A stretch of 37,600 nt of DNA from a virus (taxonomy: Duplodnaviria > Caudoviricetes). Below the pieces are notes generated by a model, which saw only the letters and a list, made by a program, of their open reading frames with translations, ran no database searches and had not been told where the DNA came from. The stretch covers positions 1 through 37,600 of IMG/VR virus record IMGVR_UViG_3300020045_001999. One strand, 5' to 3'. Of the stretch, positions 28,436 to 33,077 are shown piece by piece. Numbering within the stretch: position 1 is the stretch's first letter; each line of letters opens with the position of its first letter. A program made the translations under genes and the position numbers.

Positions 28436-29014
28436 TTAATTAATATTATATTCATTATAATAAATGAATGTTGTTTTATTTAGTTTTTGATTCTTTAACC
28501 ATCTTAAAAAAGTTGTTTTAGGAATCGTTATTATTTTTAATAATTCACTTATTGTATTATAAATTTCTTTTGTTTCAGTATTTATAATTTTTTGTGATCT
28601 ATAATGAATTTTATTTTTATATGGATTATTACCATACATTGGATTATTAATACCGTTTCTTTTACCTTTTAATGAATTTGATATTTTAGATTTTAATTCT
28701 TCAGATTTAACACATCCTACTGCACCATCACCACCGTCTGTTAAATTTACAAGTGTTCCAAGACCTAAGTCTTTTCTACCATAAAATTTAATTAGATATT
28801 TTTCAATTTCTTTTGCTTCATTATTTGTTAAATTATTAAAAAGAATTTCAATATTATAATCTGTTTTATTTATAATATTATTCCAATATTTACTTCTTCC
28901 AGTAATTTTTTTAGATCTTAATCCTGAAGCTTTTCTTTTATCTGAATCTAATTCAATACCAATGTAAAAAATATTATTAGTATCAAGTCTTCGATGTTGA
29001 TAAACTATTGCCAT
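28436..29014 (-). CDS. Free-standing GIY-YIG-family homing endonuclease with NUMOD3
   Basis: IVYQH...IFYIGI, AKEIEKYLIKFYGR, LVNLTDGGDG, SEELKSKISNSLKG and NPMYG motifs, with a C-terminal HTH-like tail. Confidence 0.82.
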   Translation of the reverse strand: MAIVYQHRRLDTNNIFYIGIELDSDKRKASGLRSKKITGRSKYWNNIINKTDYNIEILFNNLTNNEAKEIEKYLIKFYGRKDLGLGTLVNLTDGGDGAVGCVKSEELKSKISNSLKGKRNGINNPMYGNNPYKNKIHYRSQKIINTETKEIYNTISELLKIITIPKTTFLRWLKNQKLNKTTFIYYNEYNIN

Positions 29015-30664: not shown

Positions 30665-32150
30665 TTAATCTAAAATTGCTGGTTTGAAAGTCATAGTTCT
30701 AGAAGGATCTTTAACCATCGCTCCTGTACCACACATTGCTGTCATAGTAGCACTATCTTCCATTAATTGCATTACTCCACCTCTACGTCCAGAGAAAGGA
30801 TCTCTAATACCAGCCATATAACCACGTAGTTCATCATCACCACGTACTTTAATTTTTTGGATATTAGGCTCTTCCATTGAACCAATGTAAAGAATATCAT
30901 AACGATATGATTCAGCAACACCTCCGTCTGGATGAAGAATTTTGTTACGAACTTTATCATCATACATTGGATCTACTTCCAACATAATTTTGATATTATT
31001 AGGAGCTAACCATTCTGTAAATTGGAAACCACCTTTAAATGCGTTTTCATTGAATTTAGAAGTTGTTTTGTTGATAGCATTTTGATTAGTGTTATCAAAC
31101 ATTGACTTCCAACCAGAAGCAGCTGCAGTTGCAGCTCTATTAAATTGAGCAGCCCCTCTTTCACCAGTACGTAACATAAATGTACGTTCGTCCCAATCTA
31201 ATTTACCTTCTGATAATTCAGACAAAGCATCTTCTAATAAACGCATTGAGAAAATATTATAAGTAATAGTATTACTTACTTCCATTTGTTCTCTAATTCC
31301 AGAACCTGCTTTAATTTCAATATTAGCATTACCTTTATTCAAGAAACGTCCGTTTTCATCTCTGTTTGTTTTACCAAACATAATTGTACGTGATTTAATT
31401 CTTGAGAAAGCTTTTTCAAATTGCCAATAAACTTCCTGCATCCATGTTGCAGATTTATGAACTTTTCCAGTATTAGGATCTCTTGTTTCAATACCAGCAA
31501 AATAAACTGGTTCTATTTTACAATCAATCATTGCTCCAGAAACTTTATGTTCCATACGCAATGTAGAAACTGAGTTTCTCATTAAATAAGGTGAAGTAAA
31601 TTGAATACCAGCACCTTGAATAGAAAGTTCATCTTCAGAGTAAGCACTTTCAATAGAGAATCTATTTCCAGCTACAAGTTCATCTCCAGGAATACCTGCT
31701 AATGATTCTTGACCACCCCAAACCTCACATTCATAAACGTAAAGACTTCCTTCTTCAAAAGGTTCATCTAAAATTCTAATTTGGTAAACGTCTGGTCTTG
31801 GACCTGCAATAACATGCATTTTAGTAAACCATTTTTCTCCAAATACTAATTGGAATTTTGTTCTAGCTACACCAACACCTACAGTATTAGTATCTACCAC
31901 AGAACCTTGAAATCTTGCTTCTACAAGTGGAATATTTCTTTCATCACTTCCAACTACTTTCCATACGAAATCATCAGCTGTATTTAATACTTTTTCAGGG
32001 AACAAAGACAAAGTTGTATCTAAGTTTTTCATTCCTGAGTTTTGTAACAACACAGTTGTTAATGGAGAAACTAATTGTGGTTGACTTCCAAAAATAGCAC
32101 CAATGTGATTTTTTAGGGTAAGCCCACTCCAAGCTTTTCCCTTTGTCATT
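30665..32150 (-). CDS. Major capsid protein, exon 2 (join 32413-32432 + 30665-32150; 501 aa spliced)
   Basis: Crassvirales MCP motifs WSGLTLKNHIGAIF, IKAGSGIREQME, TGERGAAQF, DPMYDD..RNKILHP.GG.AESYRYDI. Confidence 0.92.
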
Positions 32151-32412
32151 CATTTATGTTCACATAGAATCGTTAATCCTATATCGGGAATTTACCCAGC
32201 TTAATATTACTATTAAGATCAGACTATATCATCATCCCAATAGGATGTTCTGCGCTTCCACTCACTTGAGTGTACTTCCTTACGGAATAGTCGTTGCACT
32301 TTTCTTATTAAATAAGACTTAGCTCAGGATTGTCCTTGTTAAACAATAGGATATTCCCTGAATTCACAGAATTTTCGATAGTAATTACTTACTAAAGTCG
32401 CCTTTGACAAAA
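32151..32412 (-). ncRNA. ORF-less group I self-splicing intron, subgroup IA2, in MCP codon 7
   Basis: Core motifs P AAUUCAGGGAA, Q AAUCCUGAGC, R GUGCAACGACUA and S GAUAUAGUCU. Helices P1 (U.G at the splice site), P2, P3, P4, P6a, P7, P7.1, P7.2, P8, P9 and P10 can be drawn, and the intron ends in G. Splicing restores MSLGKFV-MTKGKAW. Confidence 0.95.
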
Positions 32413-32432
32413 ACGAACTTACCTAAACTCAT
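32413..32432 (-). CDS. Major capsid protein, exon 1 (20 nt, MSLGKF plus GT of Val7)
   Basis: ATGAGTTTAGGTAAGTTCGT follows an A-rich leader and ends in the U that pairs with the IGS G. LGKF matches the N-terminus I recall for crAss MCPs. Confidence 0.88.
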
Positions 32433-32474
32433 AAATTTTTATTATTATTTATTATTATTTATACTTGTTACATT

Positions 32475-33071
32475 TTATTTAAAACATTCAGTGTAACCCT
32501 TGAATATTATTTTTGGTATATATTTATTAACTTCTTTTAATAAATTATGTTCTAAATAAATAGCGTCATATTTATTTAATGTTAAAGTTTCTAATATTTC
32601 AACTTTATATGGTATTTTCCATATTCTTTTATTGATTGATTTTGATAATCCTATTTTATAAAAAATAGTACCATCTTCTTCAATCATTTTAAATTTATAA
32701 AAAATTAAAGATTCTTTTAACCATTCTTCTTTATATCTTTCAGCTAATGTTATATTATAACTACCTCTATTTATAGGTAATGGATTTAATAAGCGAAAAG
32801 CTTGTCTTTTTAATTTTTTCCTGATTGTTATTTTATCTTTATTTACTTTTTCATATTCTAAATTTTTTGTTATTATTTCTGTTTTATTTATTAAATAATA
32901 TTCTTTTCTTTTTAATTTAATTTTATCAATATTGTTTTGTCGATAATTTTCATTTTTAATTAAAATTTCTTCTTTATTATTTAAATATTTTAAACGTTGT
33001 TTTTCTTTTAGAATTTCTTTATTTTTTAATCTATATTCTTTTTGATATAAAGATTTTTCTTCAGTTGTCAT
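32475..33071 (-). CDS. Free-standing putative endonuclease: five 15-aa basic repeats plus a C-terminal GIY-YIG-like (T5orf172/MUG113-type) domain
   Basis: Repeats of the type xxEYxxxNKExIxxK. The C-terminus carries IFYKF...FYKIGLSKSINKR...LEH...FKGYTECF. Confidence 0.7.
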   Translation of the reverse strand: MTTEEKSLYQKEYRLKNKEILKEKQRLKYLNNKEEILIKNENYRQNNIDKIKLKRKEYYLINKTEIITKNLEYEKVNKDKITIRKKLKRQAFRLLNPLPINRGSYNITLAERYKEEWLKESLIFYKFKMIEEDGTIFYKIGLSKSINKRIWKIPYKVEILETLTLNKYDAIYLEHNLLKEVNKYIPKIIFKGYTECFK

Positions 33072-33077
33072 AATTTA

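Follow-up and report, generated by a model that had tools for sequence, protein, structure and literature searches.

The start of the major capsid gene in a 37.6-kb virus record (the window, which is the whole record and is ~37% complete) has been called at an ATG preceded by an apparent intergenic gap, and the question raised by this locus is whether the gap is a spacer or a hidden part of the gene. The preferred answer, to which a probability of about 0.8 is assigned, is that codon 7 of the capsid gene is interrupted by an IA2-type group I intron that has no ORF and likely self-splices, and that this intron is likely a passenger of the adjacent T5orf172-type nuclease gene.

Genome setting and exons of the capsid gene

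The minus-strand genes are arranged in the order terminase, portal, gene-77-like, capsid, gene-75-like, ring and auxiliary capsid, which is the structural block of the Crassvirales. The called capsid ORF matches Crass_capsid (PF23898, E 9e-167) beginning at profile position 9 and phrog_11589 beginning at profile position 10, and the PF23898 match taken with the portal/gene 77/capsid/gene 75/ring/auxiliary capsid order identifies the product as a Crassvirales major capsid protein. In capsid sequence the window is closest, among isolates, to Cellulophaga phage phi14:2 (Steigviridae), at 62% identity, and judging from this closeness the host would be a member of the Bacteroidota. A promoter and terminator scan of the window gave matches at chance level. 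A split terminase gene was considered and ruled out, the terminase frame being open to the contig end.

The interval 32151-32432 given in the preliminary description is composed of exon 1 (32432-32413) and the intron (32412-32151), and the gene is divided as follows.

32413..32432, minus strand: first exon (20 nt) of the major capsid gene, comprising six codons and two bases of Val7
32151..32412, minus strand: group I intron of 262 nt with no ORF and with IA2 features, terminal G at 32151 (RF00028 match, helices and RNA joint)
30665..32150, minus strand: second exon of this gene, whose second base, 32149, begins an in-frame ATG (Met8) (PF23898, phrog_11589)

The split of the capsid gene after 20 nt stands as first described, the joined exons forming a single open frame of 501 codons with the restored N terminus MSLGKFVMTKGKAW. 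Read without splicing, the frame of exon 1 has room for 15 codons before a stop at 32387-32385. The public gene call on the contig is a 494-aa product (P0001), showing that the caller did miss exon 1, as had been anticipated from the in-frame ATG at the second base of exon 2.

Counts of related loci are given for the best 80 of 188 IMG/VR loci. The capsid gene is uninterrupted and the intron absent in 80/80 of these, so that empty alleles exist of the gene that intron removal restores in the window. A 7-residue (in a few cases 6-residue) xxGKFV-like peptide directly precedes MTKG in 80/80, and homologs beginning at MTKG with no LGKF-like peptide, named at the outset as the observation that would count against the split, are not seen in this set. 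Met8 is likewise invariant in all 80. The intronless gene of locus L002, with 99% protein identity, has a start equal to exon 1 of the window at 19/20 bases. Among 119 listed homologs (the window's own left out), 99 carry the N-terminal extension, 40 start with the same 14 residues (MSLGKFVMTKGKAW) and 20 are called from Met8 (e.g. P0008, P0012, P0021 and P0024). The Met8-called homologs may conceal an intron like that of the window, or their starts may just have been miscalled; P0046, P0050, P0055 and P0067 are placed on contigs >10 kb. The 494-aa homologs are not countable as intron alleles, their clusters mixing 494- and 501-residue forms and many of the contigs being short. From phi14:2 to crAss001 the N-terminal peptide is kept, LGKF being found also in the crAss001 capsid protein of known structure (7QOF), and the accessible text of the crAss001 structure paper (PMC10172136) describes no role for the first residues.

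Fold and subgroup of the intron

The preliminary description read the gap as a complete group I intron and proposed a covariance scan, which has now been run with RF00028. The full model is matched at 32422-32200 on the minus strand with 117.9 bits (cut-off 50, E 2.8e-30), RF00028 being the sole Rfam match in the whole record, and all helices named earlier are fully paired. P1 is formed by 32416-13/32401-32398, with the splice-site U.G pair at U32413.G32401, and P10 by 32411-05/32148-42 (7 bp). The other helices named earlier are P2 (32394-89/32384-79), P3 (32371-65/32254-48), P4 (32362-57/32328-23), P7 (32292-88/32226-22), P7.1 (32287-84/32279-76), P7.2 (32272-68/32263-59), P8 (32247-43/32237-33) and P9 (32217-11/32206-00). 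P5, P6a, P9.1 and P9.2 are also found, extending the earlier helix list, and a possible 2-bp P9.0 is judged by eye. The fold thus has a P3-P9 core with the guanosine site in P7, and its ends have the group I hallmarks of U32413.G32401 at P1, terminal G32151 and the 7-bp P10. The intron segment has a fold z-score of -3.2, with 1/200 shuffles folding as well. A terminal G at 32147 was ruled out, as it is out of frame, lies within P10 and differs from the RNA joint. Two elements within the intron define its alignment with the exons and its subgroup.

32398..32411, minus strand: internal guide region, formed by the P10 5' strand (32411-32405) and the P1 3' strand (32401-32398)
32259..32287, minus strand: P7.1 and P7.2 hairpins with a GUA linker, the IA2 signature in PMC3428280

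Assignment to IA2 by GUA-joined P7.1/P7.2 follows PMC3428280, the GUA linker being as in the T4 nrdB intron, and PMC4227781 adds a three-part P9 domain (P9.0, P9.1 and P9.2) as a mark of the subgroup. P9, P9.1 and P9.2 are found in the window, with P9.0 by eye, giving an extended P9 domain. The IA2 assignment made earlier from P7.1/P7.2 is therefore upheld from these features, the covariance match itself being to the general RF00028 model.

RNA evidence for splicing

Of the 24 listed sequencing runs 8 were compared. A 118-nt contig in the metatranscriptome runs X15 and X16, which belong to one study and seemingly contain the same reads, joins 32150 to 32413 and skips exactly 262 nt, reproducing the predicted junction; the short side of this joint is 30 letters against the tool's bar of 31, with likeness set to 88. 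There is no substitution over 32413-32497, and the contig thus reaches into the 3' end of the nuclease gene described below; it has three gaps, and the stretch includes an A/T repeat. The spacer from the nuclease gene to the capsid start codon (32433-32465, minus strand) is a short A/T tandem repeat, the copy number of which may vary between strains. The same two runs also contain an unspliced intron-exon 2 contig (32121-32276) extending across the 3' junction, with two differences, one a change from G.U to A-U in P9.2 and the other in the P8 loop (structure judged by eye), and both keep the fold. Run X19, from another study, covers intron bases 32195-32397 without substitution. The 32150-32413 joint is absent from the RNA runs X17 and X19, and also from X1, X2, X4 (DNA-type runs) and X7 (of doubtful RNA type), which are uninformative on the joint because none of these four covers the intron allele.

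The same joined contig could be produced by an intronless, nuclease-carrying allele with the layout of locus L007, the sample being represented here by its RNA runs. The exon-1 end in the joined contig is that of the window, a form present in 2 of the 80 intronless loci (best 80 of 188), and this rarity makes an intronless allele less likely. Suspicion of an assembly artefact or a dead remnant might arise from the finding that three search patterns, one joining P7 to exon 2, one joining the terminal G to exon 2 and one taken from intron P4-P5, gave 0 matches, and thus no second DNA copy of the intron allele, in IMG/VR or JGI contigs (the window's record perhaps excluded). The specific pairing of P1 and P10 with the window's exons and the presence of intron sequence in RNA-library contigs of two studies (the 32121-32276 and 32195-32397 stretches) render such an origin vanishingly improbable. 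A pattern of exon 1 plus the guide gave 2 matches, with neither an Rfam nor a capsid match, and a blastn search of 50,697 phage records retrieved distant introns only, none covering 80% of the query. Confidence in the existence of the intron and in its splicing is high.

The intron is likely removed by self-splicing to give a normal 501-residue protein. From group I chemistry (reviewed in PMC3984707), a guanosine bound at P7 would attack the U.G site in P1, after which P10 would align exon 2 and the exons would be ligated after the terminal G. We infer, rather than observe, that virions need this reaction, since a Met8 start on unspliced RNA could give a 494-aa protein. Splicing would then be dispensable or regulatory, with a capsid protein seven residues short as the one product or as a second form. 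Some 12 A-rich bases that are left unpaired separate P9.2 from the in-frame ATG at 32149, and start sites in Bacteroidota are A-rich and often have no Shine-Dalgarno sequence; the intron-containing contig in the RNA runs and the invariance of Met8 (80/80, best 80 of 188 loci) point in the same direction. However, the conservation of the N-terminal peptide from phi14:2 to crAss001 argues for its retention, P10 would cover Met8 while splicing proceeds, an ATG in another frame overlaps at 32153, and the unspliced contig may represent precursor or DNA. Such translation from Met8, whether as the one source of capsid protein or beside the spliced route, is judged improbable, and a little less probable again is a capsid switch, in which unspliced RNA would yield a capsid protein without its conserved N-terminal arm and spliced RNA the full one, so that ribozyme activity would govern how much of each form is made or when heads assemble.

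The adjacent endonuclease gene

Upstream of the capsid gene lies an ORF that was not mentioned in the preliminary description.

32475..33071, minus strand: putative free-standing homing endonuclease of 198 aa, with a long N-terminal helix and a C-terminal T5orf172/GIY-YIG-type domain

Residues 103-198 give Atlas TM values of 0.77-0.86 to predicted models of the T5orf172 type, and Tyr-125, Lys-139, Gly-141, Arg-149, Glu-174 and Glu-195 are invariant in 19 aligned sequences. The invariant Tyr, Arg and Glu are presumably the catalytic residues of the GIY-YIG pattern, so that predicted models and alignment together describe a GIY-YIG-type fold with these residues conserved. Sequence profiles and solved structures support this weakly, Pfam T5orf172 (PF10544) giving E 0.023 for the window's protein, below cut-off, and matching 2/19 family members. 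Foldseek returned nothing at E 0.001, the top match being the UvrC GIY-YIG domain (E 0.27); the nuclease profile had 0 matches in the PDB; the VIA structure list was filled by matches to the long helix; and the single-sequence model of the C-terminal domain (pLDDT 61) is too weak for a search. The ORF is described as a putative homing endonuclease of the T5orf172/GIY-YIG type.

The stop codon of the nuclease gene is 42 nt from exon 1, and an ORF-less intron with a free-standing nuclease gene at this distance has the layout of collaborative homing. A nuclease homolog is found at the same place in 5/80 loci (best 80 of 188), the gene thus being an optional neighbor of an essential gene, and two more were located by a nuclease search. 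The intron is absent in 7/7 of these other nuclease-carrying capsid loci, indicating that the pairing of intron and nuclease is not obligatory. The window and L007 nucleases have 46% identity only.

A second homing endonuclease gene (28436-29014, minus strand; phrog_314, weak NUMOD3) is placed between the ring and auxiliary capsid genes, where one is present in 3/67 loci that span both of these genes. The two endonuclease genes bracket the capsid, gene-75-like and ring genes, an arrangement likened to the "HEG islands" of Barth 2023 (PMC10448857), and L050 and L051 also have both. GIY-YIG homologs occur elsewhere near or within the capsid region in L014, L016, L039, L043, L059, L060, L074, L077, L078 and L079. 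The capsid region of the relatives is a hot spot for GIY-YIG genes.

A foreign patch at the start of exon 2

Superposing the window on its relatives highlights one short segment of exon 2 directly adjacent to the insertion site.

32114..32149, minus strand: patch of 36 nt opening exon 2, a likely co-conversion tract, unlike close nuclease-less relatives and like nuclease-carrying L007

The patch has 9/36 mismatches to L002 compared with 4.1% elsewhere (binomial P 1e-5, the segment having been chosen afterwards), and the next worst 36-nt segment has 6. To L007 it has 1/36 mismatches, a level of one or none being reached by 11% of other 36-nt segments, and L007 has the window's base at 9/9 of the patch differences compared with 24/59 of those elsewhere (Fisher P 8e-4, post hoc). 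A pattern search of IMG/VR for the patch returned 1 stretch, the L007 contig. The patch is absent in 6/7 other nuclease-carrying loci, so that any placement of the cut site is tentative. A DNA contig of run X2, with neither nuclease nor intron, has 6 differences in 440 flanking bases, its divergence from the window being confined to 32116-33073. The exon-2 start shared by the window and L007 (9/80, best 80 of 188 loci), and not the L002 form, is the one required for P10. The type of Ser15 codon does not follow the presence of the nuclease in general, with AGY in 4/7 and TCA in 3/7 nuclease loci and AGY in 11/76 others.

From this comparison, the nuclease would cut nuclease-less capsid alleles somewhere in codons 7-19, and repair off the donor would have to copy all that lies between the cut and the nuclease gene. 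The intron lies within this span and so would be co-inherited. Free-standing nucleases that cut away from their own gene, with repair extending from the cut to the gene and accompanied by co-conversion, are described in PMC2988022. The optional nuclease (5/80, best 80 of 188 loci) and the foreign patch together suggest that the intron hitchhiked with the adjacent nuclease gene, a sequence-based reading rated at somewhat better than even odds.

Two other histories were weighed. GIY-YIG enzymes cut some way off their binding site, and a patch 7-34 nt downstream could therefore fit strict collaborative homing, with the nuclease recognizing the site where the intron is inserted and with the intron protecting the donor allele. 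An ORF-less intron beside a free-standing nuclease also fits the definition of collaborative homing in PMC3984707 and the case of ICP1 terL. However, the 7/7 intronless nuclease loci indicate that such enzymes protect their own allele without an intron, and L007 has the same silent patch with no intron, making recognition of the insertion site unlikely. Equally unlikely is an independent arrival of the intron, whether by loss of an internal nuclease, reverse splicing or ordinary recombination, with the adjacent nuclease a coincidence. The nuclease is without an intron at every other locus seen, and a lost intronic nuclease is given as an alternative origin of such loci by Barth 2023 (PMC10448857). 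Related introns exist in other genes, a general intron core pattern being present at 83 IMG/VR loci in other gene contexts, none of which is matched by tblastn with nine structural proteins of the window. Chance co-occurrence is nevertheless unlikely with the nuclease in 5/80 only (best 80 of 188 loci), no intron allele without the nuclease was seen among the loci compared, and P10 fits the patch allele. Two related IA-type cores ~1.5 kb apart are present in L104/L105 and in L165/L166, on phage contigs of 181 and 257 kb.

Discussion

At codon 7 of the capsid gene, a selfish element of a familiar kind occupies a site new for it, with no sign of new chemistry. It provides a well-supported insertion site, with a 20-nt exon 1, for ORF-less Crassvirales capsid introns outside the described gut groups. 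Introns of this kind escape notice as exon 2 opens with an in-frame ATG and surveys of endonuclease domains miss those with no ORF, and a like arrangement may lie behind some of the 20/119 homologs with a Met8 start call. Natural alleles occur in three states (empty, nuclease only, and nuclease plus intron), a small set in which to test how introns and free-standing nucleases come to be paired, a step called unclear in Barth 2023 (PMC10448857).

Comparison with known systems

The T4 td and nrdB and the Pf-WMP3 polymerase introns (PMC3428280) have in common with the window intron P7.1-GUA-P7.2, P9.0/9.1/9.2 and a compact core. Identity to the T4 introns is 68-74% over 77-99 nt, and the window intron differs from all three in having no internal ORF and a different host gene. 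Jug phages are reported to have numerous short introns, the splicing of which is visible in metatranscriptomes (PMC12880540).

Among crAss-like phages, the Delta and Zeta groups were reported in Yutin 2021 (PMC7886860) to have capsid genes with group I introns, and a review repeats this (PMC10136315). These introns likewise interrupt the Crassvirales major capsid gene and complicate annotation, whereas they were found through encoded endonuclease domains in gut phages and the window intron has no ORF, is placed in codon 7 and belongs to a clade nearest phi14:2. A literature search conducted mostly outside subscription journals and the Yutin 2021 supplements returned no paper on a codon-7 capsid intron or on an intron in phi14:2-like phages; Supplementary Fig. 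12 of that work could list the codon-7 site. The uncultured phages cr111_1 and cr128_1 (RefSeq) also have a Crassvirales capsid gene in two parts, in these cases split mid-gene with a homing endonuclease gene within the gap. In cr111_1 (L180; NC_055880.1, 11436-12350) the split is near codon 150 with ~900 nt containing the endonuclease gene, and RF00028 gave no match at cut-off.

In collaborative homing, as in S-PM2 psbA with F-CphI and in T7-like phages, and in the trans homing of the T4 nrdB intron by mobE (reviewed in PMC3984707 and PMC2988022), an ORF-less or defunct intron is moved by a nearby free-standing nuclease, and the window has the same components. The nuclease targets the insertion site in collaborative homing (PMC3984707), whereas the silent patch in the window points more to passive co-conversion. 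A further parallel is ICP1 terL (Barth 2023, PMC10448857), where a short exon 1 is likewise unannotated, exon 2 is called as the whole gene and a T5orf172 gene lies beside exon 1, outside the intron. The host gene in ICP1 is a terminase, with splicing common to all isolates and proven by RT-PCR, whereas the window intron is rare, its transfer probably recorded in a cluster of changed exon bases.
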